Below, piece after piece: positions 5,117-45,796 of a DNA stretch of 64,000 nucleotides. The DNA lies in UHGV virus genome UHGV-0038496; one strand, given 5' to 3'. Positions within the stretch are counted from its first letter, which is position 1. Every line of letters starts with the position of its first letter. Below the pieces are notes generated by a model, which was not told where the DNA came from, made no database searches, and was given only the letters and a program-made list of their open reading frames with translations. The translations under genes and the position numbers were made by a program. This DNA is from a virus.

Positions 5117-5132
5117 AAGATTACCCTCAAGT

Positions 5133-28926: not shown

Positions 28927-29439
28927 GTGTTAAACGTAATCAAGAGAGATCTGACAACAGAACCTTTTGATGCTCGTAAAATAGTGGTAGCTGCACAAAA
29001 AGCCCTGGAGGCATCCGGGGCTGATGTGACAAGAGCATTTCATGCTGCACATTTTATTGCTGACGAGATTGTTTCTGAATTGGAGAGCTATGCTCAACAT
29101 GAAGAGGAGATAACAGTACCTGAAATCCACACAATGGTGGAAAACGCTTTGATGCGTTATGGTTATCTGGATGCTGCCCGTGCTTATATTGAGTACCGTA
29201 AAACCCGTGATAACAACCGTGAAGCTGCTGGTAAACTGCTGGCAGATGTTAATGGTTTCCTTGACCAATCCTGTGATGAATTCACTAAGGAGAATGCTAA
29301 CAAACCCACCAAGCATGTGCACACTCATCGTGATTTACTGGCCGGGATTCTAAGTAAGCACTTAGCTGTTACACAGATCCTACCGGAACATATTTCGAAG
29401 GCACATACTGATGGTTTTATACATGTCCATGAACAACAT
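28927..29439 (+). CDS. nrdD: anaerobic ribonucleoside-triphosphate reductase, exon 1 (ATP-cone); 3' boundary approximate
   Basis: N-terminus VIKRDLTTEPFDARKIVVA is ATP-cone-like; frame ends in intron-like sequence. Confidence 0.55.
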
Positions 29440-30452
29440 CGTGGCCTTACTGAGTGATCAGTATTGAATAACTCTGTTAACGCTAATTGCAAAGCGGTGT
29501 GCAGCGAAAAGCTGTGCTAACGGTTCAGAGGCAGGTGACTGCATTATGAGTAAGGGAGCCTAAACCCTTTGGACTAGGGGCAAGGTAATACCGTGCTAAG
29601 AATAGTGGCATCCTCTTAACTAGGAGGATGGTATGAATTTAGAATATGTTGATTGTGGGGATTACACAATCTATGAAGACGGTTATGTGGTTGACCATAT
29701 AGATGGCTATTGTGGTTGGGGGTACAGAAACGGTGGATACAGAGAAGCCTATGTTTACATAGGTGGAGAAAAGAGAAGAATGAAAGTTCACAGGTTAGTA
29801 GCTATGGCTTTTATTCCAAACCCTCTGAATTTGCCAGTTGTTAATCATCTGGATGGGAATAAGATGAACAACCACAGAGACAATCTTGAGTGGTGCACAC
29901 AAGGTCGTAACAATATACATGCAATTGAGACAGGATTAAGAAACGTCGCTGAATCGAACAGTAAGAGGTGGGATGACTCTGCATTCAGAGAAAGAACGGC
30001 TTCCAGAATAAGTGCGACACAAAAAGAACGCGGGACAACCGCTGGTAGGAATAATCCTCGTTTCAAGTATGAGATTGTTAAAGACGGAGATGTGTACACG
30101 GCTCCAGAGTTCTTCAATAAATTCAAAGATGTTTATGGTTTAAAACATTTGGAAAATCTGATAGGTAATTGTTGTGCATACCTCAAGCACAACTTGAAAA
30201 GAAAATTCTGGCTTAAAGTTGGAGCAGAGCCACGCTACGCCAAGAAAGAGTAAAACCTTCGGATGCCACTATTTATGTGTATCGACTATCCCGTAAGGGA
30301 GTAGGTGGGAGATGCTCCCCATCCAAAAGCAGAGGATCTCTAACTAGAGATCGTGATATAGTCATTGCCTACAGAAATGTAGGAGAATCAAGGATTTAGA
30401 TTACATAATTAGTCCATTAACGAACTGTTGTCTTGTAAATTATCCAGACATG
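29440..30452 (+). mobile_element. group I intron 1 in nrdD (HNH endonuclease-containing)
   Basis: Interrupts nrdD frame; contains ATCGACTATCCCGTAAGGGAGTAGG and GATATAGTC elements shared with terL introns; 3' end ...CAGACATG fits phase of exon 2. Confidence 0.5.
29633..30253 (+). CDS. HNH homing endonuclease (intron-encoded)
   Basis: HRLVAMAFIPNP...NHLDGNKMNN...NLEW; AGGAGG RBS. Confidence 0.65.
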   Translation: MNLEYVDCGDYTIYEDGYVVDHIDGYCGWGYRNGGYREAYVYIGGEKRRMKVHRLVAMAFIPNPLNLPVVNHLDGNKMNNHRDNLEWCTQGRNNIHAIETGLRNVAESNSKRWDDSAFRERTASRISATQKERGTTAGRNNPRFKYEIVKDGDVYTAPEFFNKFKDVYGLKHLENLIGNCCAYLKHNLKRKFWLKVGAEPRYAKKE

Positions 30453-31055
30453 CTGGAGCATGGATTTACAATAGGTAACGCAACCATAGGAACACCAAAT
30501 TCTATTAATGTAGCTGCAACAGTTCTTTCACAAATTTCAGCTGCTGTTTCTGGTGGGCAGTATGGTGGGCAGACGTACAGTCACATAGACCGCTACCTTG
30601 TCCCCTATGTAGAAAAAACACATAATAAAAACTTATCTTTCTGTAAAAAACACGGTTTGCCGGAAAGCGTTGCTGATGAAATGACAGAGAAAGATGTATA
30701 TGATAGTATGCAATGTTTTCTCTATCAAATCAACACCTTAACCAGCACCAACGGGCAAACTCCGTTTTTGACTATCAGTTTAGGTCTTGATACTTCTAAA
30801 TTTGGGAGGATGATCACTAAAAACTATCTTATGGTTCATAAAGGTGGCATTGGTGAAGACCATATAACCCCAGTATTCCCTAAAGTCTTGTTCTTCCTTG
30901 AAGAAGGGGTGAACATGAACCCAGGTGACCCAAATTACGATTTGAAACGCCTGGCTTTGGAATGCTCAGCAGAGCGAATTTACCCAGACTTCGTTTCTGT
31001 GCCTTTGAACAGAAAAGTGACAGGATCTACTGCTGGCGATGTTACAAGCATGGGT
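30453..31055 (+). CDS. nrdD: anaerobic ribonucleoside-triphosphate reductase, exon 2
   Basis: Frame continues reductase body; ends with U before splice donor. Confidence 0.55.
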
Positions 31056-31833
31056 AAACTACTATTGCTCATGTAAAACCTATCTAAACGGGGGAACTCT
31101 CTACGGAGAAAATCCCGTGCTAAACGTAACAGAACTCCCGGAGAAAAGGAGTCCTGAAATGAGAAAACAAATTCGTGATTTTGAAGGGTATGAAATTGAC
31201 GAGATGGGAAATGTTTATTGCACCCGCTACGAAAAGGAAAGAATCATCCATCCGTGGGAAGAAATAAACACAGGCTACCTTCTTGTCAGGATACGCAAGA
31301 ACAAGAAAACTGTTTGCCTGAGGGTTCACAGACTTGTTGCTGAAGCGTTTTTACCGAATCCAGACAATTTGCCCTATGTTAAGCATAAGGGTGACAACAA
31401 GAAAGATAACAGCGTATACAATCTTGAGTGGGGTGCTTGCCCAGATAATACCCAGGAAGGTTACGACAACAACTGTTATACTTTTTACACAAGGTGTCAC
31501 GGTGTGAAAGCTACCAACAAACTGACTGGTGAAGTTTTCCACTTTAAGAGTCTGAGATGCTGTGCTGATACTTTAGGGGTGGATAGAAAAAGAATATCTG
31601 CTATCCTGAAGCGTGGAGCACCTAATAACTATGATTACGAGTTCTGTTACGAAATGCCGAACGACTAACCGTGATGAATGTAGCGGTGTAGGGTGCAAGC
31701 CTATGGCACTCCAAAAGATAGGCACACGAAAGTGTGAAGATATAGTCTGATCTGCATGGTGACATGCAGCCGAGCATGGATGCGGTGGATGGAACCAACG
31801 GGGGTAGTGTTGCGAGCTACTCTGAACACAATG
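31056..31833 (+). mobile_element. group I intron 2 in nrdD (HNH endonuclease-containing)
   Basis: Exon 2 ends ...ATGGGT, intron ends ...CACAATG (omega-G), exon 3 begins TGT giving continuous ...SMG/CRSF...; AAGATATAGTCTG and CTGCATGG..ACATGCAG hairpin near 3' end. Confidence 0.6.
31159..31668 (+). CDS. HNH homing endonuclease (intron-encoded)
   Basis: Start at MRKQIRDFEGYEIDEMGNVY after AAAGGAG; VHRLVAEAFLPNP...NLEWG. Confidence 0.65.
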   Translation: MRKQIRDFEGYEIDEMGNVYCTRYEKERIIHPWEEINTGYLLVRIRKNKKTVCLRVHRLVAEAFLPNPDNLPYVKHKGDNKKDNSVYNLEWGACPDNTQEGYDNNCYTFYTRCHGVKATNKLTGEVFHFKSLRCCADTLGVDRKRISAILKRGAPNNYDYEFCYEMPND

Positions 31834-32808
31834 TGTAGAAGTTTCTTGAGTAAATACAACGATCCTGTAACAGGTGAAGAGAAATATCTCGGTCGTTTCA
31901 ACTTAGGTGTGGTAAGCCTGAACCTACCTATGATTGCAGCTCGTTCCAAAGCTGAACAGGTAGATTTCTTCAAACTGCTTGACGAGTATCTTGAACTGGC
32001 GTATGATGCTCATATGGTACGTGTGAACCGTTTGAAAGGCACAAAAGCTGGACAGAACCCGATCATGTGGTGTGAAGGTGTTCTGGCTCGTCTTGATCCT
32101 AATGAGGAGATTGACAAACTGTTCTACGATGGCTATGCTTCTATAAGCATCGGCTATATTGGTGTTTATGAAACATGCCAGATCCTTGGCAGAGAAGGCG
32201 ACAAAAACCTTGCTCTGGGTATCCTCCAGCACATGAAGGATAAATGTGTTGAGTTCAAAGAACGCAGCAGATTAGGTTTTAGCCTGTACGGCACACCAAG
32301 TGAAAATCTCTGCTATAAAGCGGCTACTTGCTTAGACAGGGCGTATCCTGGAGTTCTGGAGCACGAAAGGGAATATCTGACTAATTCGTTTCATCAGCCA
32401 GTCTGGATCAAGAGCAGTCCTTTCGACAAGTGGGACTATGAAACCGGATTCGCAGCGATCTCCAACGGAGGGTTCATAGGTTACGTTGAACTACCTAATT
32501 TACGTAACAATCTCGATGCTTTGGAAAAAATTGTTGATTACGGGTACACCCATTTGCCATATTTCGGCATCAACATGCCTGTTGACCAATGCTTCAAATG
32601 TGGCTTCCGTGGGGAATTTTCTGCCACTGCAAAAGGGTTCTGCTGCCCTGAGTGTGGTAACCATGACGAAAGTAGCATCAGTGTGATCCGAAGAGTATCA
32701 GGCTATCTGTCTGCACCTAATGCTCGCCCATTCAATCGAGGGAAACAATCGGAGGTGTTAGAAAGGGTTAAACATGTCGGCAACGTAGATTGTTGTAGTA
32801 TCTGTTAA
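31834..32808 (+). CDS. nrdD: anaerobic ribonucleoside-triphosphate reductase, exon 3 (C-terminal zinc ribbon)
   Basis: C-terminal CFKCG...CCPECG zinc ribbon as in class III reductases. Confidence 0.6.
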   Translation, partial: CRSFLSKYNDPVTGEEKYLGRFNLGVVSLNLPMIAARSKAEQVDFFKLLDEYLELAYDAHMVRVNRLKGTKAGQNPIMWCEGVLARLDPNEEIDKLFYDGYASISIGYIGVYETCQILGREGDKNLALGILQHMKDKCVEFKERSRLGFSLYGTPSENLCYKAATCLDRAYPGVLEHEREYLTNSFHQPVWIKSSPFDKWDYETGFAAISNGGFIGYVELPNLRNNLDALEKIVDYGYTHLPYFGINMPVDQCFKCGFRGEFSATAKGFCCPECGNHDESSISVIRRVSGYLSAPNARPFNRGKQSEVLERVKHVGNVDCCSIC

Positions 32809-32862
32809 CAGAGGTAGGAGCCACCTCTGGTGGGTGGCTCTATACCTTCGTAGGGAGGAGTT

Positions 32863-33372
32863 ATGAATGGAAGATGTTCTATACCTGTTCCTAAAGGTAG
32901 TAACGGAGAAATCTTATGGGATGAAATTTTCATAGCCAAAGATAAAGGTTTAGTGTGGAAATACGACAGAAGGATGGTTAAAGCTGGCGAGAAGGCAGGT
33001 ACAAAACAGAAAAATGGCTACTTTGCTGTCTATGTTTGTGGGAAACAGTATTATGTTCACCGAATAGTTTGGGAAATGCATAATGGTCCTATACCGAAAG
33101 GTAAAATGATTGACCATGTGGATCACGACAGAGAAAACAATGATATAAGCAATCTTAGGCTTGTTGATGATAAAGGCAATACGAGAAATGTATCCTTGAG
33201 AGCAGACAACAAGTGTGGTTGCCCTGGTGTGTGCTTCGACAACACAAGGCAGAAATGGCTTGTCACTATTTGCGGGAAATACATAGGTAGGTTTGATACC
33301 TTGTTTGAAGCAATTTGCGCCAGAAAATCTAGAAACGCAGAGCACGGCTTCCACAAGAACCACGGGAGGTGA
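32863..33372 (+). CDS. HNH-AP2 homing endonuclease (free-standing between nrdD and nrdG)
   Basis: VHRIVWEMHNGPIP...IDHVDHDRENNDISNL HNH motif; AP2-like C-terminus. Confidence 0.6.
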   Translation: MNGRCSIPVPKGSNGEILWDEIFIAKDKGLVWKYDRRMVKAGEKAGTKQKNGYFAVYVCGKQYYVHRIVWEMHNGPIPKGKMIDHVDHDRENNDISNLRLVDDKGNTRNVSLRADNKCGCPGVCFDNTRQKWLVTICGKYIGRFDTLFEAICARKSRNAEHGFHKNHGR

Positions 33373-33615
33373 CTATCGTAGCCCATAGAGGCCATTTAAA
33401 TAAGGATAGCCAAAGAACACAAAGAGGTGCTGTTAAGATAAGCAAATGCTGATTGTTAGGTAAAGAAGAGGTTTAATTGATTAAAGAAAAGGTTGAGGAA
33501 ATTGTCGAAAGTCCTGTAGAATGGTGTAAGCGAATGCAGGATGAAGCCGAGACAACAGAAGATGTGATGAATCACTATAAACTGGCCCAGATGTGGATGG
33601 GACGGGAGAAAAAAG

Positions 33616-34101
33616 ATGAACATAGTGGGGTATGACTCTACCTCTTATACAGAGGGTCCAGGTATCAGGGTTGCTGTGTGGGTGTCTGGTTGCGTACATC
33701 ACTGCAAGGGGTGTTTTAACGCTCATTATTTCGATCCGAAGGTAGGTACACCATTTTCAGAAAAACATCTTGACAAAATACTTCAAGATCTGGATAATAG
33801 CTACATCGACGGAATCAGTTTCCTCGGTGGTGAACCTCTTGCACCTTACAACGTGGAAGGCGTTCTTTCAGTAATGCGAGAAATCCGCAAAAAATTTGGT
33901 GACAAGAAGACAATTTTAGTGTATACTGGCTACGTATTGGAAGAACTACCGATTTGGGTACGTGCCCAGGTAGAATGCCTTGCTGACATGATTATCGACG
34001 GCAGATATGAGAAAGACCTGCCAACAAAGAAACCTTTCCGTGGTTCTGATAATCAGTGCTTTTATGTTAAGAAAGACGGCATCTGGCACAAGGTTGATTG
34101 A
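33616..34101 (+). CDS. nrdG: anaerobic ribonucleotide reductase activating protein (radical SAM)
   Basis: CVHHCKGC = Cx3Cx2C radical-SAM cluster motif near N-terminus; next to nrdD. Confidence 0.65.
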   Translation: MNIVGYDSTSYTEGPGIRVAVWVSGCVHHCKGCFNAHYFDPKVGTPFSEKHLDKILQDLDNSYIDGISFLGGEPLAPYNVEGVLSVMREIRKKFGDKKTILVYTGYVLEELPIWVRAQVECLADMIIDGRYEKDLPTKKPFRGSDNQCFYVKKDGIWHKVD

Positions 34102-34138
34102 AAAGCAAGCAAACAATACGTAATACTTAAAAGATTGG

Positions 34139-34168
34139 TTGACAAAGCCCAGTAAACTTTGCTATACT
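34139..34168 (+). promoter_or_regulatory. sigma70-like promoter
   Basis: TTGACA-18-TATACT. Confidence 0.5.
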
Positions 34169-34199
34169 TAGTTCAACAAAACAGAGGAGGAGCCTTGAA

Positions 34200-34322
34200 A
34201 TGGCTAAGAAAATGCTGAAAAAAGCTCTGAAGAAAGAAATGGCACTAGAGCTTAAACGTAGGCGTAAACACGAAGAGATTGAAAGGGCAAAACGTAAAGC
34301 AAAAGAAGAGGAAGAAGAATAA
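34200..34322 (+). CDS. hypothetical small basic protein
   Basis: 40 aa Lys/Arg/Glu-rich ORF after AGAGGAGG; stop overlaps next start. Confidence 0.35.
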   Translation: MAKKMLKKALKKEMALELKRRRKHEEIERAKRKAKEEEEE

Positions 34323-34681
34323 TGCCGATCAATGTAGACAAACGCAGAGCTTTGGCTCAGGAATTTGTGGATTTAGTATTTCCACGTATGATGGCAGGCC
34401 ATGCTGAAAGTATTCAGTTTGAACTGGAAGGTATTCGCCTGTTACTACAGAAATCTACCGATCCTCGTTTGATGAAAGACCTGGAAGCAAAAGCCAAACA
34501 GCTTGAAAAAGCATTGTTAGCTGAAACTCAGGCCAAAGTGCGGGAGATTATGGTGGATGCGATGGCGAAAGAGTTCTCCGTGAAAGAGTTGGAAGAACTG
34601 ATCCACACAGAGAAACTTAACATTCGTGTACAAGGTGTAGCAGCCGGACTTGATCAATCTTTAACTGAACTCCTGGGATGA
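34322..34681 (+). CDS. hypothetical protein
   Basis: 119 aa coiled-coil-like ORF. Confidence 0.5.
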   Translation: MPINVDKRRALAQEFVDLVFPRMMAGHAESIQFELEGIRLLLQKSTDPRLMKDLEAKAKQLEKALLAETQAKVREIMVDAMAKEFSVKELEELIHTEKLNIRVQGVAAGLDQSLTELLG

Positions 34682-34775
34682 TTCAAGAAAACAGCCGTTG
34701 ATTAGGCCGTGCGGTGCTGAAGTGTAGCGGTCTGAAACAATATTCCCCAATTATCCTCAACTAAGGAGTCCCAAA

Positions 34776-35585
34776 ATGGGCAGAAGTTTAGAGACTAAAA
34801 TGCGTCGTCAAGAGGCTCGTGAGGCTCGTAAAGAAAAACGCATGAAACATGCTGTTGAGAAATTTGCAGAGGAACGTGAAGAGATTCAGAAAGTTGAACC
34901 TCTGGTGGGCCTCAATCCTAAGCAAAAAGCTATGCTCCGTGCTCTGCGTGAAAAAACTCTTATTGTGGTAGACGGTTTAGCAGGGACTGGGAAAACATAT
35001 CTTGCGGCGGCTTTTGCAGCAGACCTTTTCCGTGAAAACCAGATCGATAAAATCGTTGTTACTCGCCCTTTAGTATATTGCGGGGGGAAAACAAGCGGTT
35101 ACAAACCTGGTGGCGTTGTAGAGAAAATGGGGCCGTATGTACGACCAATGCTGGAAGTAATTATGTCTCGCCTGGGTAAAGGTGCTTATAAAACTGCACT
35201 GGCGAATGGTACTGATGGTCGTATTGAAATTCTTGAGTTTGAAAGTGTGCGTGGTCGTTCTATTGGTTCAAGCAAGTGCCCGACAATTCTGATTGTTGAC
35301 GAAGCACAGAACGCAACACCAGAAGAACTTTTCAGTATGATCACTCGTATTGGTGAAGGCTCTAAAGTTATCTTACTTGGCGACGTATACCAACGTGATA
35401 CTCGCAATTCTGGTCTGAAATGGTTAACAACTTTCATTGAAAACCATGAAGGTCTTGACGAGTTTGCTGAGGTTATTCACTTCAACCGTCCAGAAGATAT
35501 TGTTCGTTCTGGCTTAACTAAAGCTATGATTACTGCTGTTATGGAAGATGCTGATGACGGTCTGTATGTTCCTATCAGTAAATAA
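34776..35585 (+). CDS. phoH: PhoH-like ATPase
   Basis: Walker A GLAGTGKTYLA and Walker B ILIVDEAQN. Confidence 0.7.
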   Translation: MGRSLETKMRRQEAREARKEKRMKHAVEKFAEEREEIQKVEPLVGLNPKQKAMLRALREKTLIVVDGLAGTGKTYLAAAFAADLFRENQIDKIVVTRPLVYCGGKTSGYKPGGVVEKMGPYVRPMLEVIMSRLGKGAYKTALANGTDGRIEILEFESVRGRSIGSSKCPTILIVDEAQNATPEELFSMITRIGEGSKVILLGDVYQRDTRNSGLKWLTTFIENHEGLDEFAEVIHFNRPEDIVRSGLTKAMITAVMEDADDGLYVPISK

Positions 35586-35625
35586 TTGACAGGAGGGAGG
35601 GGTGTCATGCCCCTCTTTTGCATAA

Positions 35626-36162
35626 ATGTCAAAAGCAAGAGAGATAGAGTTAAAATACGGTCAAGAAGGCTTCAATAAATTATTCCTTATAGACCAAAAG
35701 AACAATTTGGTGTGGAAAGTAAATAGAGGTGGTGGAGCAAGAATCGGGGATGTATCTTGCAACAGCAAAGACACTTCTGGTTACTTCATTGTTACAGTAG
35801 ACGGTGTGCATCTGGCAGCTCATAGGGTTATTTGGATTATGAGGCACGGCGATATACCGGATAACATGCAGATTAATCATATAGACCTGTGTAAAACCAA
35901 TAATGCTGACTCTAACCATGAGCTTGTGGCACATGCTACAAATTGCAGGAGGAGAGGTCCCCAGAGGAAAAGCAAAACGGGTTATGGTGGTGTGCATTAC
36001 CGTAAAGATCGGGATAAATGGAGAGTTTGCACAAGAAACGAGAAAGGTGAACGTGTAAACCTTGGGTGCTATGACGATCTCGACATGGCTAATACAGTTG
36101 TTACTTTGTACAAGATAACATTAGAAGCATTATTCGGAGAAGATTTTAAATATTTGTGTTGA
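35626..36162 (+). CDS. HNH-AP2 homing endonuclease (free-standing)
   Basis: HRVIWIMRHGDIP...INHIDLCKTNN HNH motif; AP2-like C-terminal repeat. Confidence 0.6.
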   Translation: MSKAREIELKYGQEGFNKLFLIDQKNNLVWKVNRGGGARIGDVSCNSKDTSGYFIVTVDGVHLAAHRVIWIMRHGDIPDNMQINHIDLCKTNNADSNHELVAHATNCRRRGPQRKSKTGYGGVHYRKDRDKWRVCTRNEKGERVNLGCYDDLDMANTVVTLYKITLEALFGEDFKYLC

Positions 36163-36187
36163 CAACCATCGTCGTTTCTGTTATAGT
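36159..36187 (+). promoter_or_regulatory. sigma70-like promoter
   Basis: TTGACA-17-TATAGT overlapping end of upstream endonuclease gene. Confidence 0.5.
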
Positions 36188-36213
36188 TAGTCCCATCAAG
36201 AGGAGAACGAAGT

Positions 36214-36531
36214 ATGGCAGAAAAGAGATTTCTATCATTGCAAGAAAGACTTAACAAAGTGTATTGCCTTGTCCCTAAAGGTGAAGGTTATATCGTAGCC
36301 AACAAGGGAACACGTAATGCATGGGTCAAGAATCCTGACGGTTCTGTAGAAAGTGTGGCAATCTTGACAAATTCGTCTTACAAGATGTTCACAGAGTCTA
36401 TGGAATATTTCACAAGTGAAGTAAAATTTGTTGGAGAAAAGGTTGACATAGACGGTGTAATCTGGTACATTGTTGACATTGCAGGAATCCCAGAGAACGA
36501 CAACACTTACAAATACGTTGTAGCAAGATAA
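36214..36531 (+). CDS. hypothetical protein
   Basis: 105 aa ORF. Confidence 0.5.
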   Translation: MAEKRFLSLQERLNKVYCLVPKGEGYIVANKGTRNAWVKNPDGSVESVAILTNSSYKMFTESMEYFTSEVKFVGEKVDIDGVIWYIVDIAGIPENDNTYKYVVAR

Positions 36532-36585
36532 GGTGGTGATGCAGTAACGCTACAACAAGTCTACCCTCACATAAGGATCGCTATC

Positions 36586-37599
36586 ATGAACAAATTTTAT
36601 AACAATCGTCGTCAGCCTGAACGCAACGAGAAAGCAGTAGAACCGATGCAGAACAAAATGTTTGGTATGCCTGGTGGCATCATGGAAACATACAGCTATC
36701 CTGCTCCGGTTATGGATCACGTCATCTATATTGATGACTTAGAAGACCTTCAGGACCATCTATCTCGTTTACAACTGATCCGTATGCTGCAACCTGATGA
36801 TTCTATTCGTATTATCATCAATAGCCCAGGGGGTTGCGTTAACATTGCTATGGCTTATCTCCAGGCAATGCGTGAATCTCAGGGCCATGTAGTTACTCAT
36901 GCGGAAGGTATGGTTTGCTCTGCTGGTACTATTTTGTGGTTAGGTGCAAAAGAACGTACTTTGTCTCCGAACTGTGAGTTCATGTTCCACAACTATCAGG
37001 GCGGTACTTTCGGAGACGGTGCTAACATGCACGATCAGGTGACTTTCTTCAAACGTCATTTTGATCGCTTGATTGATAAAATGTATACTGGGGTGTTAAC
37101 TGAAGAAGAGATTGCTAAAATTAAAGGTGGTGGTCAGGTTTGGTTGAACGAAGAAGAGATCGCTGAACGTACTGGTGCAATCATCCTTGACGAAGAGAAT
37201 ATTGCACGTATTCAGGCTGGTCAGCAGGCTTTACCTTTCAACAAAGACCGTGGCGTGTTAGGTGAAGAAGGTTTACCGGAAGTTCATCAATGCAGCTCTA
37301 TGGAAGAACTGGTAAAAGCTATCCATGAAGCGAAAGCAAAAAGCAATGAAGAAGATAAACCGAAAGATGTTTATCTGAATCTGCTGATGGACGATGGTCG
37401 TAACTTTAAACTGAACGTTGCAACGTTAAGTGAAGAAGAGCTGAAAGACTTCACTGTTGCAGAACTTCGTGAGATTCTGGTTCAATTACACGGTGCTTTA
37501 ACTGGTGAAGAAATTGAAGTTAAAGACAACAACCGTGGTCGTCTGGTTAAGAAAATCATCAAAGCTGGCAAAGATCTTCATGATAAATTGCTGGGCTGA
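36586..37599 (+). CDS. ClpP-like serine protease with C-terminal extension
   Basis: ClpP-type motifs around INSPGG and MVCSAG (Ser) in N-terminal half; about 150 aa acidic coiled-coil-like extension. Confidence 0.55.
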   Translation: MNKFYNNRRQPERNEKAVEPMQNKMFGMPGGIMETYSYPAPVMDHVIYIDDLEDLQDHLSRLQLIRMLQPDDSIRIIINSPGGCVNIAMAYLQAMRESQGHVVTHAEGMVCSAGTILWLGAKERTLSPNCEFMFHNYQGGTFGDGANMHDQVTFFKRHFDRLIDKMYTGVLTEEEIAKIKGGGQVWLNEEEIAERTGAIILDEENIARIQAGQQALPFNKDRGVLGEEGLPEVHQCSSMEELVKAIHEAKAKSNEEDKPKDVYLNLLMDDGRNFKLNVATLSEEELKDFTVAELREILVQLHGALTGEEIEVKDNNRGRLVKKIIKAGKDLHDKLLG

Positions 37600-37613
37600 T
37601 TAACATAACGCTA

Positions 37614-37637
37614 AGCCCTCTTCGGAGGGCTTTTTTG
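37614..37637 (+). terminator. rho-independent terminator
   Basis: AGCCCTCTTCGGAGGGCT followed by TTTTTT. Confidence 0.65.
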
Positions 37638-37653
37638 ATCTGGAGATTTATTT

Positions 37654-38172
37654 ATGACCTGTGCTCGCAAGCCAGATAGTGAACGTAAACCCTATGATGA
37701 GTATGTCACCCCACAATATTTAGCGGATGCACTGTTTGAACTGATTGACTTCCCTGACCACTTCACATTCATGGAGCCATGCAGAAACAGTGCAACAGGG
37801 CCGTTCTACAGTAATATGCCGTTAGGTTCAGCCTGGGGTGAGATTCAGGAAGGTGTAGACTACCTTGAAACAGATTATCCACATGTTAACTGCATTGTGA
37901 CCAACCCGCCATTCTCTAAAGCCAAAGAGTTTATTGAGAAAGGCATGGACGATGCTGATGTGGTGATCATGTTACTCCGTCTTAACTTCCTTGAGTCAAA
38001 GACACGTTATGAGTGGTGGCAAACTCACCAACCCACAACGATAATCACCATTGCCAAGCGTCCATCCTTCCAGGAGAACGGCAGAACCGATGGTCAGGCC
38101 TATGCCTTCTTTGTGTGGGATAAACAGGACCTGCTGAAACTTCCACCATTTATGTGGATAGGGCCAGAATAA
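37654..38172 (+). CDS. putative DNA methyltransferase-like protein (NPPF motif)
   Basis: VTNPPFS motif IV-like and EPCRNSATGPF motif I-like; short (172 aa). Confidence 0.35.
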   Translation: MTCARKPDSERKPYDEYVTPQYLADALFELIDFPDHFTFMEPCRNSATGPFYSNMPLGSAWGEIQEGVDYLETDYPHVNCIVTNPPFSKAKEFIEKGMDDADVVIMLLRLNFLESKTRYEWWQTHQPTTIITIAKRPSFQENGRTDGQAYAFFVWDKQDLLKLPPFMWIGPE

Positions 38173-38450
38173 TGAACGCCAGAGATACGCTACACAACCT
38201 AGCCAAAAAAGCTCCTATAACACTCCCAAAAGAGATGAACGAGCTTTATGATGCAGTTGTGGCTACAGCCAAAGAAAAGGCGGTTGCAGGCTTCTTTGGC
38301 TGCTCATTTACGCTGAAAATACCTGAGCATCTGTCAGATTACATTCCTCACATGATAGCTGACCTAAGATCTGGCGGCATATCTGTAGATGTGATCGGGA
38401 TGAATCCAGAAAAAGATGCCGTATTTGTGTTTTTGATGTTGACATGGTAA
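38172..38450 (+). CDS. hypothetical protein
   Basis: Start at ATG overlapping upstream stop (TAATG). Confidence 0.4.
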   Translation: MNARDTLHNLAKKAPITLPKEMNELYDAVVATAKEKAVAGFFGCSFTLKIPEHLSDYIPHMIADLRSGGISVDVIGMNPEKDAVFVFLMLTW

Positions 38451-38487
38451 GAGAGGTGTGCTACTATTCACAACATCGGAGGTGCTT

Positions 38488-38718
38488 ATGGCTTACGTTA
38501 AATTCAATATCTGGTTCCGCAAAAACAAACACTATACAGAGCTGTTCATCACACAAGGTGAAAAGCCTGAGGGGAATGGTTGGTGGTGCCGTGAGATGCT
38601 GCGTAAGGATGAGCACTTCAAAAGGCTGATTGGCATGATTCCGGCTGATGAAATTTATGATCTGGATCATGGCAGAGATGTGTTAGATTTAATAAAATAC
38701 ATGAACACTTGGAAATAA
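38488..38718 (+). CDS. hypothetical protein
   Basis: Start at ATG after GGAGGTG. Confidence 0.45.
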   Translation: MAYVKFNIWFRKNKHYTELFITQGEKPEGNGWWCREMLRKDEHFKRLIGMIPADEIYDLDHGRDVLDLIKYMNTWK

Positions 38719-38730
38719 CAGGAGTCCACG

Positions 38731-39141
38731 ATGAAAATCGAAATCGTAACAGGTGAGAGCGGTAAGAAAGAAGTGAACGGTGAATTCGCCACAGTGGTGA
38801 AAGACACAATGTTCGAGAAAACTCATTTCGGTGAAAGTGTTGTTGGTGACACTGTTCAGGTGATGGGTTTTGTACCTAAAGGTGCAACAATCCTGATCCT
38901 TGTAGCAGGTCAGGAACCTATGGAAGGTACTGTTGGCACAGACGGATACATCTGCATGACTGAACACCCTCGTATGCAGATGGAAGATAGTGCAGGCAAT
39001 CGTATCGGTTGCAAATTTGATGAAGTGGCTCTGATTTATGCAGAAGACCCTGAAAACTGCGAAAAAGAAGATATCATTGTTGGTAACGAACTCTTTGCTA
39101 TTGAAGAGTTGTCAATGGTAGCTCCGAAAACAGTTCAGTAA
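38731..39141 (+). CDS. hypothetical protein
   Basis: 136 aa, ACAGGAG RBS. Confidence 0.5.
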   Translation: MKIEIVTGESGKKEVNGEFATVVKDTMFEKTHFGESVVGDTVQVMGFVPKGATILILVAGQEPMEGTVGTDGYICMTEHPRMQMEDSAGNRIGCKFDEVALIYAEDPENCEKEDIIVGNELFAIEELSMVAPKTVQ

Positions 39142-39182
39142 GTTTCTTTAGCCTGCCAGGGATGGCCTTTCAGGAGGTTTAA

Positions 39183-39416
39183 ATGAAAGTTAAATTCCTT
39201 ACCGACCACGGTTACCCATCCCTTTGTGATTGTGTTGGCAAAATTGTCCCCTGTAAACGCTTGACAACCGATCCAACAATTGTTATAATCCGTGGTGTTG
39301 ACTTACTGGAGGCAGGTGCAAAAGAGGGAAGAATATCTCCCGGATACACCTACTACATGTCCCTTCTGCCACTCCCAGAGCATGGCGGCTTGGGGTTCGA
39401 AATAGTTGAGGAGTGA
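39183..39416 (+). CDS. hypothetical protein
   Basis: 77 aa, CAGGAGG RBS. Confidence 0.45.
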   Translation: MKVKFLTDHGYPSLCDCVGKIVPCKRLTTDPTIVIIRGVDLLEAGAKEGRISPGYTYYMSLLPLPEHGGLGFEIVEE

Positions 39417-39421
39417 CCACT

Positions 39422-39928
39422 ATGAGCAAGCTACTGTACACTTGGAAAGACTTTTACGTATCACCGGATAAGATCCACACATATTATTACTATGCTTCAG
39501 GAAAACATACTGAAGCAGATGTAAAACGTCATCAAATCATGATGGCTAAAGCTAAATATGCTTACTTTATCGCTGGTGTTTCTGAGGCAGTAGCTGCTTT
39601 TGTATCTTGCATGGATAAAGCGTTCGATGATAATACGCTTTACTTTGTTGAAGGTGAGGAAACAGGCCATCCAGAGCGCCGGGTAACACCATTCACTCTC
39701 GAAGGTCATGACCTGCCTGTTAAAATTGCTGTGAATTGGTATGATGGCTACAATGAATGTGGTCTGTATTCTTACAAAACTGTAGAAATAGAAGAGGAAG
39801 GACTCCTAACTAAAGCTGAGCGAGATTACATTGCAAGATTTATCTCTGAAGTGTTTGAAGAGTGTATGCGTGCTCATCACAGAAAAGCTCGTGATCGGAT
39901 GATCCGCAATATGGCAGAATTTAAATAG
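39422..39928 (+). CDS. hypothetical protein
   Basis: Start at ATG after GAGGAG. Confidence 0.5.
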   Translation: MSKLLYTWKDFYVSPDKIHTYYYYASGKHTEADVKRHQIMMAKAKYAYFIAGVSEAVAAFVSCMDKAFDDNTLYFVEGEETGHPERRVTPFTLEGHDLPVKIAVNWYDGYNECGLYSYKTVEIEEEGLLTKAERDYIARFISEVFEECMRAHHRKARDRMIRNMAEFK

Positions 39929-39939
39929 GAGTTGACACA

Positions 39940-40158
39940 ATGGGCATTGTTGAGCTATATTTCGGGGTAGCAGGATTGCTAATGATTGTTCTGGCAATTC
40001 TGTGTCTGAAGACTAAACGTCGGATCGATGGTGATGACGTTCACAATATCCTTGGGTTGGCAGGACTGTGGCCTTTCCTGTTCCTGGGTTTACTGATCGG
40101 CGTAATCGATTGGGTTAAGAATATGCGTAAGTTGAGAGGAGGTGGTGATGGAAGATAA
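39940..40158 (+). CDS. small membrane protein
   Basis: 72 aa, two hydrophobic helices, AGGAG RBS. Confidence 0.45.
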   Translation: MGIVELYFGVAGLLMIVLAILCLKTKRRIDGDDVHNILGLAGLWPFLFLGLLIGVIDWVKNMRKLRGGGDGR

Positions 40159-40315
40159 TATTCATGCCCAATTGCTGTGGCAAGTTCTCCACATCATAAA
40201 AGACCACAGAAACAATGCTGAAACGTTGGCTGATCAAATGTTGTTGCAAAACTTGCTGCATGAAGTTGTTGAACTGATCGAAGAGGTTGACCATGGGCCA
40301 AGCAATGCTGGTTGA
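40148..40315 (+). CDS. hypothetical small protein
   Basis: 55 aa ORF below track cutoff; GAGAGGAGG RBS; overlaps neighbours. Confidence 0.3.
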   Translation: MEDNIHAQLLWQVLHIIKDHRNNAETLADQMLLQNLLHEVVELIEEVDHGPSNAG

Positions 40316-40389
40316 GATGTTGACTGGGGTGTGCCTGTTCTTTGTTATCTTAGCGGGTGCAATTATCCTTTATCACAAACTGAAAGAGG

Positions 40390-40602
40390 ATGATGAAGAT
40401 GATTGACATTTCAAAGATTAATCCTGACAACATGTCTCTTGAACAGGCCAAAGAGTATATGCACCAGCTAATAGATGTGTGGGAGATGGACTACCGCGCC
40501 CACAACGTTGAGCATGGTGATGAATCTTGGCCTATGATCCGTTCTAATTGGGACTGGATTGATGATTTTAACTTCTTTTTGACTTTCGGCAAGGAGGATT
40601 AG
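40390..40602 (+). CDS. hypothetical protein
   Basis: 70 aa, AGAGGA RBS. Confidence 0.45.
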   Translation: MMKMIDISKINPDNMSLEQAKEYMHQLIDVWEMDYRAHNVEHGDESWPMIRSNWDWIDDFNFFLTFGKED

Positions 40603-41058
40603 ATGTTTGTGAAGTACGTCAGGTCTGGTCTTGAGAATCTGGATAAGAAGCACTGGATGATGCTCCTTGAGGCTGGTAAGATTGAAACGACAACTGGTGT
40701 GATTAAACTTTCACCATCAATTGACCATACCAAAGAGGTTCTTAGCATTTATGATTCTGAGGCGAATACACATTATTCTGTGTCAATGAATCGACTCATT
40801 GTGACTCGTGGTTCTGGAGGTAGCACAAAAGACTACGCTTTCGATGTGGTTACGGAGAAAGACGAAGGATCTGATAGTTTTAAAATGGCTGTCCATGATA
40901 TGAATCGCTCAGTTGAGCGTATCCTGAAAGCTCTGCCTGAATCACGTTCTGAAAAGATTCGTAAAATTGTTAACAATAAGGTCAACTGGGTAGTTCTTGC
41001 CATCGTGATAGTGCAATTAATGCTTATTTTACACCACGTAGAGCTACTCTTTGAATAA
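40603..41058 (+). CDS. hypothetical protein (C-terminal membrane anchor)
   Basis: 151 aa, AAGGAGG RBS, hydrophobic C-terminus. Confidence 0.5.
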   Translation: MFVKYVRSGLENLDKKHWMMLLEAGKIETTTGVIKLSPSIDHTKEVLSIYDSEANTHYSVSMNRLIVTRGSGGSTKDYAFDVVTEKDEGSDSFKMAVHDMNRSVERILKALPESRSEKIRKIVNNKVNWVVLAIVIVQLMLILHHVELLFE

Positions 41059-41190
41059 ATGTTACACAAGGATGTGTAAGAGGAGATGGTAACATGAAAA
41101 ATTCATTAAGGAGTTGGCAGAGGGGGTGTACTGGTTTGCGTTCGGTGCAGTGTTAGGTCTTCTGTTTGTTGAAGCTATGAGGCTCATTGT

Positions 41191-41580
41191 ATGAAAAATT
41201 TTCTGTTCAGTGTTGCTTTCGCCAAGTGTATGCTTGCTTTAGGTATCCTTCTGTTTTGCGGATTAGGCCTAGGATTCATTATTCATACACTGGGTGAAGA
41301 TTATAAAGATCAGGAGGCTTACGCTTGCCAGGTTGCAACGTACACGCTCCAACAAAGTGGCTACGAAGAAGTCTGTGTTGAAGCGACAATTGATGAAAAG
41401 TTGACTAAGAACAAAGATTTCTTCCACGGTTATGCTATTCTTTCTTCTGGTGAAGAGATAGAGTTCTGGCTTTATATGGATGAAGACCAGGCTCAGATGA
41501 GAATGGAAGCTCCAGCCGCCAGTGATCCGGTAACGGAACCTGAGCGGTACTCTGGGCCAGCAGATGGGGTTCGTATATGA
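41191..41580 (+). CDS. hypothetical membrane-anchored protein
   Basis: 129 aa with N-terminal hydrophobic segment. Confidence 0.45.
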   Translation: MKNFLFSVAFAKCMLALGILLFCGLGLGFIIHTLGEDYKDQEAYACQVATYTLQQSGYEEVCVEATIDEKLTKNKDFFHGYAILSSGEEIEFWLYMDEDQAQMRMEAPAASDPVTEPERYSGPADGVRI

Positions 41581-41780
41581 CAAAAGAGCAATTTGAGGTA
41601 TTCCAACGCATTTTTGACGAACTGGATCGGGATATCGTAGCTCGTCGCTACAACCCAACAATGGAGTCTCCTCTGGAAGATATGTTGCGTCAGCAGGGTT
41701 TTGACGTTGCATATGATGCCATTATGGATATCTACCACCAGATGTTGAAGGAGGAAGACAATGCTGTGGATCCATCATAG
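41577..41780 (+). CDS. hypothetical protein
   Basis: 67 aa; ATGA overlap. Confidence 0.4.
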   Translation: MTKEQFEVFQRIFDELDRDIVARRYNPTMESPLEDMLRQQGFDVAYDAIMDIYHQMLKEEDNAVDPS

Positions 41781-42069
41781 TGACGGTACACTTTTCTACA
41801 CGGCAGGTGTCCGTTATGAGACAGAAGAAAACGGGAAAACAATTATTATAAAAACATTTGACAAGGACGGTAAACTTCTGTTAGAATTGCCATACAAGGT
41901 CGGAGAGGTTGAGTCAGTAGAGATTGACATTGAAGAACATGACAATCCTTTGAAGAAACCTGGCCTTGGAAAGAACTCTCAGGCACATCTCATGCAGATG
42001 TTTAATGCAGATGATGAAGCTGGGGAATCTAAGAAAACAGCAAAAAGAAAAGGTAGAGGTAGACGCTGA
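41761..42069 (+). CDS. hypothetical protein
   Basis: 102 aa; AGGAGG RBS; basic C-terminal tail. Confidence 0.45.
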   Translation: MLWIHHSDGTLFYTAGVRYETEENGKTIIIKTFDKDGKLLLELPYKVGEVESVEIDIEEHDNPLKKPGLGKNSQAHLMQMFNADDEAGESKKTAKRKGRGRR

Positions 42070-42266
42070 TGGCTAACGAATTTAAATATGACACTTATTA
42101 CTTCAACAAGCAGAACGGCCTGTATTACATCGTGCACTCAGACGCTCCTGGTGTTGTAATGGTGTGCAGACCTGAAAATATAAGTAAGGGTAAGGCTTCT
42201 GCTTTCACGCAGGATCTTATGATAAAAGCTATTCAAATAGGTATTTTTGAAGAGGAGATCTTCTGA
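42069..42266 (+). CDS. hypothetical protein
   Basis: 65 aa ORF. Confidence 0.4.
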   Translation: MANEFKYDTYYFNKQNGLYYIVHSDAPGVVMVCRPENISKGKASAFTQDLMIKAIQIGIFEEEIF

Positions 42267-42460
42267 TGCCTACAGAAACAACTTTCATCATATCTGGTCG
42301 TATGTCTGTTGACGAAGACTGGCATTTGGTCAGGGTTCTTGTTTTTAAAGAAGGCACGACTCCTGAGTACATCCGTGATACTCTTGATGACGCTGGTGCC
42401 CTCTATAGCCGGACGTGGCGCTATGTGAAGCTGGAGGAGGTTACAGATGTGGCTCTTTAA
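42266..42460 (+). CDS. hypothetical protein
   Basis: 64 aa ORF, GAAGAGGAG RBS. Confidence 0.4.
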   Translation: MPTETTFIISGRMSVDEDWHLVRVLVFKEGTTPEYIRDTLDDAGALYSRTWRYVKLEEVTDVAL

Positions 42461-42716
42461 CTGGTGGCAGAAACGTAAATTCCACACAGTAGCTTATTGC
42501 CGCTGGAGTATAGAGTGGCTTGATGAGAGCGGCATGAAAATACCTGGAGATGCTGACACAGGTTTCTGGCTCTTCCAGGAGAACGGTTATGGTGAACGTC
42601 GTTTCTGCACCACAACTAAACCTTGTGGAATATCCCGCATTCCAGGGTATGCTCAGTGCGAGCTTTGGGTTGAAACAGGTATTTATCCAGCAGGTGCACA
42701 GCTGGTGGGAGGGTGA
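42447..42716 (+). CDS. hypothetical protein
   Basis: 89 aa, GGAGGAGG RBS, Trp/Cys-rich. Confidence 0.45.
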   Translation: MWLFNWWQKRKFHTVAYCRWSIEWLDESGMKIPGDADTGFWLFQENGYGERRFCTTTKPCGISRIPGYAQCELWVETGIYPAGAQLVGG

Positions 42717-42719
42717 CCG

Positions 42720-42983
42720 ATGGAAGTGGAATTTAAAATCTTCTTTGATGGTGTATGGTGGAGAGCACAGGTGAAGAAAGTTCACTTTGGCTTTATACCA
42801 ATGTGGCATGATATCTGGCTAAACGGTCAGCGTAAATGGCACGCTGAAGAACAGGCCGTTTGGGCTGCTGATTGCTACTTGAAAGACAGAGCTTTAACAG
42901 AGCAAGGTGCACAGTATTACACTGCTGACCAGATTCATGCTAAAGCTCATATGCCTAAGGCAGCACCGCCAAAAAAGCCGTAA
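42720..42983 (+). CDS. hypothetical protein
   Basis: 87 aa, GGGAGGG RBS. Confidence 0.45.
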   Translation: MEVEFKIFFDGVWWRAQVKKVHFGFIPMWHDIWLNGQRKWHAEEQAVWAADCYLKDRALTEQGAQYYTADQIHAKAHMPKAAPPKKP

Positions 42984-43055
42984 AGGACGATAAACCACGT
43001 CCACCTGAACCACCACAACCAATTATCCGCTATGAAGGCTGGTAAGGAGAGAGTT

Positions 43056-43331
43056 ATGCGTCATGTTCGTTTACTTGATGGCCTCGATGACGATCCGGTA
43101 GTAAACCGGGTAGCTGAATTAGTCAATAAGATGATGGAATACCAATACCGTTTGTCAAACGGCACATTCCGCATGTTCCGACGCAAAGATGCACAACGTA
43201 TGGAAGAGACGGTTGAGAAAATCCGTCGCCATATAGGCATACTGCTGGGTAAAGTTTATCCAGGTGGTGGCTACTGGGAGGTAACTGGGGTGCCGGATAC
43301 TCGTATCTTGCTCATGTATGTAGATGAGTAG
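43056..43331 (+). CDS. hypothetical protein
   Basis: Start at ATG after AAGGAGAG. Confidence 0.45.
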   Translation: MRHVRLLDGLDDDPVVNRVAELVNKMMEYQYRLSNGTFRMFRRKDAQRMEETVEKIRRHIGILLGKVYPGGGYWEVTGVPDTRILLMYVDE

Positions 43332-43340
43332 AGGTGGGTT

Positions 43341-43703
43341 ATGGTTATCGAGACAGTAATCCCTTCTGACTTCATGTATCAATTTTACATGGAGTACAGG
43401 AGCTGGGCATGGGGAGGTGCTAAAGACACTGATCCTGTGTTCCAGGATCATCGCGGTTTATGTGGTAACCTGGCTGAGTATGCCTCTTATCAAGGTCTTG
43501 ATACAGAGACGTACCATCAGCTCCAGGAAGAGCTGGAAACTGCTCTGGAAAAAGTTTATGGTGACACACAATTTCCGTTTGACAACGGGGATGCATACGT
43601 GTATTATAGTCGTAAGAACAAACACCTCAACGTTATGAGGATGTTGTTTGTAGATGCCATGATTCTGAACTATGAGGAGGCCCACAGAGGTGAATCTCTA
43701 TAA
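43341..43703 (+). CDS. hypothetical protein
   Basis: 120 aa, AGAGGTGGG RBS. Confidence 0.45.
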   Translation: MVIETVIPSDFMYQFYMEYRSWAWGGAKDTDPVFQDHRGLCGNLAEYASYQGLDTETYHQLQEELETALEKVYGDTQFPFDNGDAYVYYSRKNKHLNVMRMLFVDAMILNYEEAHRGESL

Positions 43704-44076
43704 AATAACTGCGCTGGTGGAAGATGCCTGGGATGTTGAGGATGACCACCAGAAAAGAAAACGTGTAATTGGCTACGCCATTGCGGGGGATGGTGTCTCT
43801 GCTGGCTGGTTAGCCGGATATTTATTTGCAAGATCGAATTTCGACCGTGGATATCAACGTGGTGGGTTTAATGGTAAAGTCCACGTAGATTTTGAAAAAA
43901 TTGACTTGACAACAGCACCTGAAGTGTTTATAATCAAACATCCTGATAGCAGATCTCCTTACTATTGGGACAATGATAAAAAACAGTGGACACCAGATAA
44001 AAACTGTGCTACAATGCTTAAAAATAGCAATCTTGATGACATGCCTCCGTATGGCAAAATTGAGATTAAAAAGTAG
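43690..44076 (+). CDS. hypothetical protein
   Basis: GTG start after GAGGAGG. Confidence 0.4.
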   Translation: MNLYKITALVEDAWDVEDDHQKRKRVIGYAIAGDGVSAGWLAGYLFARSNFDRGYQRGGFNGKVHVDFEKIDLTTAPEVFIIKHPDSRSPYYWDNDKKQWTPDKNCATMLKNSNLDDMPPYGKIEIKK

Positions 44077-44105
44077 TTGACAACACGATTTGAATCTGGT
44101 ATAGT
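44077..44105 (+). promoter_or_regulatory. sigma70-like promoter
   Basis: TTGACA-17-TATAGT. Confidence 0.5.
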
Positions 44106-44134
44106 TACCACATCAAAACAAAGAGGGTGCCAAG

Positions 44135-44395
44135 ATGAAACAAGAACTCGTTATCGACAACAACGGTGCATTCGGCCTTATCGCTGGTGTAGATTACGTT
44201 GAAGAAAGTATGGACCAATCTTGTCCTGGGGTACTTCCGGTACGTGGTGAACTCCATGCGGAAGATGGTGAGTTGAAAGCAGTACTCGAAGCATTACGCT
44301 TCGATCCTCAAGACGGACTTTCTCCTTTGGAACACGCCAAAGCGGTTCGTCAACTGGCCGACGCGCTCATTAAACTGGCGCAAGGTCACTTTTAA
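44135..44395 (+). CDS. hypothetical protein
   Basis: 86 aa, AGAGGG RBS. Confidence 0.45.
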   Translation: MKQELVIDNNGAFGLIAGVDYVEESMDQSCPGVLPVRGELHAEDGELKAVLEALRFDPQDGLSPLEHAKAVRQLADALIKLAQGHF

Positions 44396-44769
44396 TTAAC
44401 TAACTGGAGATTGCACTTATGGCATGTGGCAAAAAAGGTGGTTGTAAAGGAAAAGGTAAAGGGAAAGGTAAAAAATAATTTACCTCTTTTCCGAATTTTA
44501 ACTTTACACGAGCAGCAAGATGGTGTAGTATGTACGACATGATTTTGATGTTTCTCATCTATACTTTTCTTGTCTGTGGAATCATTGGAGGGCTGGACTT
44601 TGTAATCCAGCTCCTCCGTGAACACTACAAACAAGATAAATAACTACCAACTAAGGAGAATATGTAATGCGTTTAGAGATAGCTTGTCTGTTAATTATGA
44701 TTTTCTTGATAGCTGTTGTTAACTTCTTAGGCTACGGCTATTAATTCTACCCAAAAAGAGGACCTTCTG

Positions 44770-45042
44770 ATGAAAATTAAATTACTGAACACTGAAATTG
44801 CTGATCCAATCCATGGCCTGACTGAAGGTATGATCGTAGAAGCTAAAATGCCTACACCGGAAGATGTTGCTCGTGATGCTCTGGGCGACGAAACATTCGA
44901 AGGCATGGGCGAAGCTGAACGTGAAGCTCTGCTCACTATGGTTGAACTGCACCTGCCAGAAGGTATGGCTACTTTTGATGCCCCAGGGAGCGGTGAAAAC
45001 CTGATTGTTTTACCTGAAAACTACGAGGTAGTTGAGGAGTAA
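44770..45042 (+). CDS. hypothetical acidic protein
   Basis: 90 aa, AAGAGGA RBS. Confidence 0.45.
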   Translation: MKIKLLNTEIADPIHGLTEGMIVEAKMPTPEDVARDALGDETFEGMGEAEREALLTMVELHLPEGMATFDAPGSGENLIVLPENYEVVEE

Positions 45043-45215
45043 AGCATGTTAGCGGTCGCTTATCTCTTAACTGTCGTAACAGCACCTGTAGTTCTTGCTT
45101 ATGGTGTCTTTATGGTCACTCAAGCTAAAGTTTTGAAAGAGTTTCTCTGATAAACTTGCAGTTACCTCACTAACTTAGGCACAGCGGATGTGCCCTTTTA
45201 CAAAAGGTACTCACA

Positions 45216-45781: not shown

Positions 45782-45796
45782 CAGGAGGACTCTCCC

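Follow-up and report, generated by a model that had tools for sequence, protein, structure and literature searches.

Ribonucleotide reductase (RNR) genes are the phage genes most often split by introns, and nrdD is the commonest of them in a survey of 128 phage genomes (PMC3653736). Some of these genes hold several introns, since nrdE of phage Twort has two and nrdE of Brochothrix A9 has three together with an intein (PMC3653736). T4 carries a free-standing HNH gene, mobC, between nrdG and nrdD, and translation of its intron endonucleases is controlled by sequestration of the ribosome-binding site (RBS; PMC2988022). The HNH introns of a Vequintavirinae phage are known to splice by reverse transcription PCR (PMC7344957). 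Here we analyzed a stretch of 64,000 nucleotides (nt) of the virus genome UHGV-0038496, hereafter called the window. Its nrdD gene occupies positions 28927-32808 of the plus strand and, according to the open reading frame (ORF) listing and the sequence, consists of three exons, with an insert after each of the first two; both inserts contain an HNH ORF. Very probably, this is an intact class III nrdD into which two mobile group I introns, unrelated to each other, have inserted, each at a codon boundary.

We set the boundaries between exons and introns by alignment to L027, an uninterrupted IMG/VR homologue with 90% amino-acid identity. Exon 1 (28927-29430, 504 nt) has a GTG start and encodes the ATP-cone (Pfam, E 2e-20) and the start of the NrdD core (positions 1-48 of the NRDD profile), ending in ...IHVH with U as its last base. 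Exon 2 (30393-31055, 663 nt; DLDY...TSMG, last base U) covers positions 66-263 of the same profile (E 4e-47). Exon 3 (31834-32808, 975 nt), which begins with CRSF, covers positions 263-562 (E 9e-86); it encodes the active-site cysteine, the glycyl-radical motif RVSGY and the zinc ribbon CxxC...CxxC, and matches Gly_radical (E 1.5e-24). Intron 1 (29431-30392, 962 nt; terminal G30392) is probably a group I intron of IA2-like type with P7.1 and P7.2, and intron 2 (31056-31833, 778 nt; terminal G31833) is a group I intron of the T4 td/sunY type (IA2) without P2. All these features lie on the plus strand. The lengths of all three exons are divisible by 3, and both junctions are in phase 0. An earlier note on this DNA had described nrdD as three exons in different frames, split by two HNH-bearing group I inserts. 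The three NrdD-coding segments detected with Pfam and the group I anatomy of both inserts bear out this organization. The frames need correction: only exon 2 differs, while exons 1 and 3 share the same frame, because the start coordinates of the three exons modulo 3 are 1, 0 and 1.

At the first junction, ...GTCCAT/GAAC...ATCAAG/GATTTA yields IHVH/DLDY. The second junction, ...ATGGGT/AAAC...CACAATG/TGTAGA, yields SMG/CRSF and is the one that the earlier note had already placed, with exon 2 ending in ...ATGGGT, the intron in ...CACAATG and exon 3 starting with TGT. The joined exons encode a NrdD of 713 amino acids (aa). Its alignments to T4 NrdD (1h78, E 9e-169) and 9d3x (E 2e-161) are colinear and run through both junctions without a gap. 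Alignment of the conceptual spliced protein had been proposed as a check on the split gene, and the result is in its favor. The spliced protein retains the finger-loop cysteine (MGCRSF), RVSGY and both pairs of zinc-site cysteines (CFKC...CPEC), so that by its full-length colinear match, cysteine, glycyl-radical motif and zinc cysteine pairs it qualifies as a class III ribonucleotide reductase. Intron 1 is inserted at codon 168/169, and intron 2 at codon 389/390, one residue before the active-site cysteine.

The anatomy of intron 2 is that of known group I introns. Its guide GCUCAU (31067-31072) forms 6 base pairs (bp) with the exon sequence AUGGGU, with a U.G pair at the cut site in 9/9 sequences, and the intron ends in ...AAUG. 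Homology to the T4 nrdD (sunY) and td introns is plain in its 5' part (guide GCUCAU, P3, P4 and P5) as well as in its 3' part; the latter comprises P7, P7.1, P7.2, P3', P8, AAGAUAUAGUC, P9 and P9.2, followed by ...GAACACAAUG. P7 is formed by 31663-31667 with 31743-31747. We aligned nine sequences, from the window, two coliphages, Vibrio phage F97, four metagenomic contigs and the T4 sunY core. Across this alignment, 99.6% of the cells of the hand-drawn structure are paired, with 20 compensatory pairs, and none of 500 shuffles equaled it; none of the slid registers came near it. The compensatory pairs include five in P3, two in P4 and one in P7, and others are found in P7.1, P8 and P9.2. Because the strands of P6a were misaligned in the MAFFT alignment, we read this helix straight from the sequences: it pairs 31125-31137 with 31639-31651 and measures 13 bp in the window, 9 bp in F97 and 4 bp in the copies with no ORF. 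These ORF-less copies come from three related contigs, where they occupy the same codon, and pass the Rfam Intron_gpI threshold of 50 with 70-75 bits. One copy of the intron at this site, in L161 (8138-8389), has GACCA/UGGUC in P7 instead of GACUA/UAGUC, a compensatory change in the guanosine-binding helix.

Intron 2 is already present in public genomes, where it is usually annotated as a separate coding sequence (CDS). Many deposited genomes of Vequintavirus, Justusliebigvirus and Phapecoctavirus have this intron, complete with its endonuclease gene, at the same site (85-91% identity). The exons that flank it are only about 72-79% identical to those of rV5-like phages, as compared to about 90% for the intron itself. 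Intron 2 is therefore more conserved than its host gene, which is the signature of a mobile element.

The structure of intron 1 was analyzed in an alignment of eight distinct homologues from which the ORFs had been taken out. Its guide sequence AUCGUGG (29438-29444) is complementary to the ligated junction CCAU/GAU, as fits P10 pairing to the 3' exon. P1 pairs CCAU/GA with UCGUGG, with U.G at the 5' splice site, in 8/8 sequences, and the intron ends in ...CAAG. The 5' strand of P6 (29600-29613, plus strand) pairs with 30261-30274 in a 14-bp stem that has 10 compensatory pairs and occurs in three sequence versions. The HNH gene of intron 1 therefore lies inside the P6 loop, and the ORF-less copies in L172 and L032 have the same stem closed by short loops. 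With the P3/P7 pseudoknot included, 99.7% of the cells of the drawn structure are paired and 16 pairs are compensatory; it was equaled in 0 of 500 shuffles. In addition to the pairs in P6, compensation is found in P2, P7.2, P8 and P9. When run unaided on the same alignment, RNAalifold returned P1, P2, P3, P6, P7.1, P7.2, P8 and P9. P3 to P9 can be drawn in canonical order, and P7 pairs 30284-30288 with 30359-30363. We excluded the P5 extension from the tested structure because alternative pairings fit it equally well. The 5' strand of P7 reads (C/A)ACGACUA and the 3' strand GAUAUAGUC in both introns, and both have P7.1 and P7.2, with compensatory changes, between P7 and P3', as in subgroup IA2.

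Both the insertion site of intron 1 and its variant of the group I core are new, and the Rfam model does not detect the intron. It is absent from 50,697 phage records, in which blastn returned only short matches to the HNH core and a 90-nt match in Vibrio phage phi3/JSF10. With the ORF of exon 1 as a protein query, we retrieved products that end in the same intron-encoded tail (...IHVHEQHRGLTE). Homologues at the same codon are found in 12 metagenomic contigs and in the IMG/VR contig L032, 13 overall. These copies form a series: they have the same HNH gene of 206 aa (962-966 nt), an internally deleted remnant of it (461 nt), a different ORF (970 nt) or no ORF (334 and 311 nt). The sequence UCCAU precedes the insertion site in 9/9 alleles that bear intron 1 and in 0/8 intron-less alleles, which use synonymous codons instead. 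Selection for P1 pairing would explain this difference, and so would co-conversion during homing. Matches to the intron 1 endonuclease protein in IMG/VR do not exceed 67% identity and are confined to parts of the N-terminal HNH region, and the 5' half of the intron, searched by blastn against all fetched loci, matched L032 only. The P7...P7' signature of intron 1 (CGACUAUCC, 50-75 nt, GUGAUAUAGUC) occurs in more than 120 loci of viral contigs; in 9 of 20 sampled loci, Rfam reports a group I match above threshold at the spot of the P7-P7.1-P7.2-P3'-P8-P7' signature. The exact pattern GTGATATAGTCATTGCC was also tried and rejected, as apart from one contig already known it returned chance matches in coding DNA.

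The proteins encoded within the two introns both resemble the HNH endonuclease I-HmuI. The gene in intron 1 (29633-30253, plus strand) encodes a 206-aa protein similar to I-HmuI (1u3e, E 7.6e-9) and to PHROG 59 (E 4.5e-32). The gene in intron 2 (31159-31668, plus strand) lies in the P6a loop and encodes 169 aa that are I-HmuI-like over the full length (E 1.5e-7, residues 3-166 aligned to 4-172) and match PHROG 59 (E 2.5e-34). Its ORF most likely starts at ATG 31159, judging from the AAGGAG upstream; the in-exon ATG 31039 is the less likely start. At the 3' end of the gene, the last codons and the TAA stop run into P6a, P6, J6/7 and P7, as read from the sequence, and the gene is 91% identical at the nucleotide level to that of phage PQ014731. 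The two intron proteins share 46% identity over a 59-aa HNH core and are otherwise different. The AGGAGG ribosome-binding site of the intron 1 gene is part of a local hairpin (-14.6 kcal/mol, z -4.3). Nothing persuasive for separate transcription of the endonucleases emerged from a scan for promoters and terminators.

To what extent do these data support two functional introns? Several observations weigh against it. P3, P4 and P7 of intron 1 show no variation in the eight sequences, and because of this invariance covariation is silent on them. Rfam Intron_gpI does not recognize intron 1 of the window (16.9 bits, E 0.59, threshold 50), and the ORF-less copy in L032 has no Rfam match at E<1. Between P3 and the J3/4-P4 motif, intron 1 bears a non-canonical segment of 46 nt with two conserved hairpins (29479-29527; CGCU/AGCG and GUGCAGC/GCUGUGC). 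This segment repeats UAACG and GUGCUAA, motifs that normally flank P4, and looks like a partial duplication of J3/4-P4; it is probably the reason why Rfam misses this intron family. Also intron 2 remains below threshold in the window (34 bits, E 4e-6, 3' core), because the ORF splits the core. Its HNH protein scores 19.9 bits with Pfam HNH_3, under the curated cutoff of 24.8, which is passed by the intron 1 protein (34.1 bits), and its RBS hairpin beats shuffled sequences only by a modest margin (z -1.8). Finally, both splicing and homing at this nrdD are events that we infer from the sequence.

These observations leave some room for intron 1 being decayed or splicing-defective, in which case nrdD would be a pseudogene or would work only through rare splicing. 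The lack of Rfam recognition, the unusual segment between P3 and P4 and core helices with no covariation all point in this direction. However, the intron is preserved with 99.7% of its pairs intact in nine distinct alleles whose exons are open and conserved, and every carrier has retained the exon bases that pair with the guide. Moreover, exons 1 and 2 are 90-92% identical to the intron-less gene, with all motifs intact. We consequently hold a defective intron 1 to be improbable.

Slightly less probable still is that the gene is expressed in pieces with no splicing, with the HNH genes as plain insertions and NrdD as three polypeptides that assemble. Such an arrangement has a precedent in phage RNR, namely mobE in nrdA of Aeromonas phage Aeh1 (cited in PMC7344957), and both gene callers and GenBank records return separate CDSs. 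Yet neither exon 2 nor exon 3 truly begins with a start codon served by a ribosome-binding site: the first ATG in frame is 19 codons inside exon 2 and, for exon 3, 26 codons upstream in the intron. The breaks fall within invariant motifs, at IHVH/DLDY and one residue before the active-site cysteine. Plain endonuclease insertions would have no need for the conserved, covarying group I cores present in both inserts, and versions with no ORF exist for each of them. Lastly, phage RNR genes commonly contain inteins (PMC3653736), and one appears to be present in the terminase gene of the window. For nrdD, however, inteins as well as programmed frameshifting or bypassing are effectively refuted and were discarded because exon-frame stop codons occur 9 codons into intron 1 and 6-7 codons into intron 2, and in addition both inserts contain group I cores and Pfam scans of the ORFs of the region detect no Hint or intein domain.

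If nrdD is indeed split by two group I introns, each intron RNA would fold into a group I core in which the guide base-pairs to the 3' end of the upstream exon, with a U.G pair at the cut. An external guanosine would attack at this pair, and the freed exon end would then attack just past the terminal G of the intron. Ligation of the exons would produce a single mRNA for the 713-aa NrdD. During mixed infection, judging from its family, the HNH enzyme would nick or cut an intron-less nrdD close to the insertion site, and recombinational repair would copy the intron and the adjacent exon sequence into the intron-less genome. The RBS hairpins may hold down translation of the endonucleases, as they do for the T4 intron endonucleases. 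At the two insertion sites, intron-less targets of the L027 type read ATACATGTGCAC/GATCTTGACTAT and AGCATGGGA/TGTAGAAGC.

Comparison with related genomes supports homing indirectly, by presence/absence polymorphism, an intron that is better conserved than its exons and mosaic flanks. In the close relatives L027 and L028, nrdD is uninterrupted. When compared to the window, L027 shares 92% and 90% nucleotide identity in exons 1 and 2, and only 74% in exon 3, where L030 and L163 reach 82-83%. The gene is therefore a mosaic at intron 2. We extended the comparison to the locus 28927-34101 in L027, L030, L163, L172 and PQ014731. L027 is closest to the first two exons, L163 and L030 to exon 3, the Escherichia coli phage PQ014731 to the endonuclease gene of intron 2 and L030 to the 3' part of this intron and to the third HNH gene (90-92%). 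L172 is the closest relative in the DUF8272 remnant and nrdG that follow (91%). The break points of the mosaic coincide with mobile elements.

Across the fetched relatives, nrdD is interrupted at codons 168/169, 226/227, 289/290, 389/390 and about 545 (sites A to E), in many combinations, and T4 adds a sixth site. A second intron at the T4 site in L163 and L164 was considered and rejected, as tblastn places the insertion at codon 289/290. In L032 (IMGVR_UViG_3300045988_157310, 4001-8514), nrdD has inserts at all five sites. One of them scores 75 bits against Rfam group I and another 32.9 bits. Each follows an exon U for which a guide-like sequence close by offers a pairing partner, with approximate boundaries at site E, and all five contain a P7-like A(A/U)CGACUA motif. 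The second insert has an open frame of 317 codons for an HNH-type endonuclease. We are inclined to conclude that nrdD of this uncultured clade, which is distantly related to rV5-like phages, is an unusually dense homing target, hit at five sites in varied combinations; that L032, with all five in a 2.1-kb gene, may be the most intron-dense phage protein gene; and that the site-A intron is an undescribed group I variant with a duplicated-looking J3/4-P4 that covariance models miss.

Downstream of nrdD lies a third HNH gene (32863-33372, plus strand), which starts 54 nt past the nrdD stop and interrupts no reading frame. Its product scores 72.7 bits with Pfam HNH_3 and matches PHROG 99 (E 1.6e-54); like the two intron proteins, it matches I-HmuI. 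A relaxed Rfam scan of 32809-33615 returned no group I signal or core. A further HNH gene between nrdD and nrdG had been predicted from the start, and it is confirmed as free-standing. The AP2 label that had been attached to its product found no support: AP2 (PF00847) has no Pfam match at E<=5, phmmer against PDB returned no AP2/ERF structure at E<=10, and BLASTP against an approximate AP2 sequence of AtERF1 gave no alignment. A remote AP2-like fold is possible, as profile searches are not exhaustive. Among the relatives compared, only L030 has this gene, again downstream of nrdD (92% nucleotide identity). It is probably a free-standing homing endonuclease of the mobC kind.

The third HNH gene is followed by a remnant of a DUF8272 gene (33477-33635, plus strand) composed of the 52 C-terminal codons, with a TTG start, which overlaps the start of nrdG by 20 nt. 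Other relatives have an intact DUF8272 gene of 90-107 aa between nrdD and nrdG, and by alignment the remnant corresponds to the C-terminal half of those in L161, L163 and L172. The window lacks the N-terminal half. Since only the last 52 codons are left, the third HNH gene occupies the place of the missing half. The nrdG gene (33616-34101, plus strand) encodes the activating radical-SAM enzyme (Pfam Fer4_12, E 2e-39, and Radical_SAM). The order nrdD-nrdG-phoH is rV5-like. The nearest relatives come from IMG/VR sample 3300045988, as metagenomic contigs of about 117-141 kb, and from Logan/ENA assemblies. The following 12 kb (34000-46000) have no megablast match among the 50,697 deposited phage genomes.

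An Rfam gathering scan of the whole window missed both nrdD introns; its matches are an intron in the terminase region and a transfer RNA gene (10210-10282, minus strand, 68.3 bits). The large terminase gene is also in pieces (5217-9079, minus strand). All on this strand are a first piece (7964-9079) with an intein-like insert that splits Walker A (...IIGGAAG/CLSMRHEV...AVTGN/SGKSFLL), an ORF-less group I intron (7384-7720; Rfam 80.3 bits), a Terminase_6N-like piece (7007-7291), an ORF with HNH and helix-turn-helix parts (6205-6897) and a Terminase_6C piece (5217-6002). The rV5 terminase has been reported in three segments with a homing endonuclease (PMC3606486).

Mobile HNH group I introns in phage RNR genes have been known since T4, and our results therefore add no new principle. 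They have consequences for annotation: the three nrdD pieces should be joined as one product of 713 aa, and the nrdD of many deposited rV5-like phages and of Vibrio phage F97, filed as separate CDSs, needs the same treatment. The series of intron 1 copies, with full endonuclease gene, remnant, replacement and empty versions, is suited to the study of the cycle of gain and loss of homing endonucleases. The clade is a compact natural system for measuring how much intron load is tolerated by one essential gene, and also allows one to ask why the same few codons beside catalytic residues recur as targets.

Among the closest parallels to intron 2 are the T4 nrdD (sunY) and td introns, with which it shares the guide GCUCAUGUAAAA..., P3, P4, P7.1, P7.2, AAGAUAUAGUCUG and P9 CUGCAUGGUGACAUGCAG. 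As in sunY, P2 is lacking, and the host gene is the same. The RBS of the endonuclease sits in a hairpin, as it does for the T4 intron endonucleases (PMC2988022). However, the T4 intron is inserted at about codon 278 in the numbering of the window rather than at 389/390, and it encodes the GIY-YIG enzyme I-TevII downstream of P9, whereas intron 2 hosts an HNH gene in P6a. The rV5-like coliphages (for example PQ014731 and MT932211) have the same intron 2, at the same site and with the same endonuclease gene, at 85-91% nucleotide identity, and share the nrdD-nrdG-phoH neighborhood. Unlike the window, they have this single nrdD intron and lack intron 1.

Vibrio phage F97 (OZ195764) also has two HNH CDSs between pieces of nrdD, and the second of its inserts is homologous to intron 2 and shares its site. 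Its first insert is at codon 226/227 (site B) instead of 168/169, and its NrdD is only about 35% identical. In the corresponding locus (L173, 26-4160), nrdD is annotated as five CDS fragments and the introns are unannotated; tblastn places the insertions at 226/227 and 389/390. I-HmuI is the HNH nicking homing endonuclease of the DNA polymerase intron of Bacillus phage SPO1 (PDB 1u3e). The intron 2 protein aligns to it over the whole length, including the C-terminal NUMOD-like/helix-turn-helix part, although identity is low and host genes and targets differ; the intron 1 and free-standing proteins have C-terminal halves with no relation to I-HmuI. The third HNH gene recalls T4 mobC by its position beside nrdD and nrdG, with the difference that it sits at the missing 5' half of a DUF8272 gene. 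Finally, as in nrdE of Twort and Brochothrix A9, several mobile elements are stacked in a single RNR gene.

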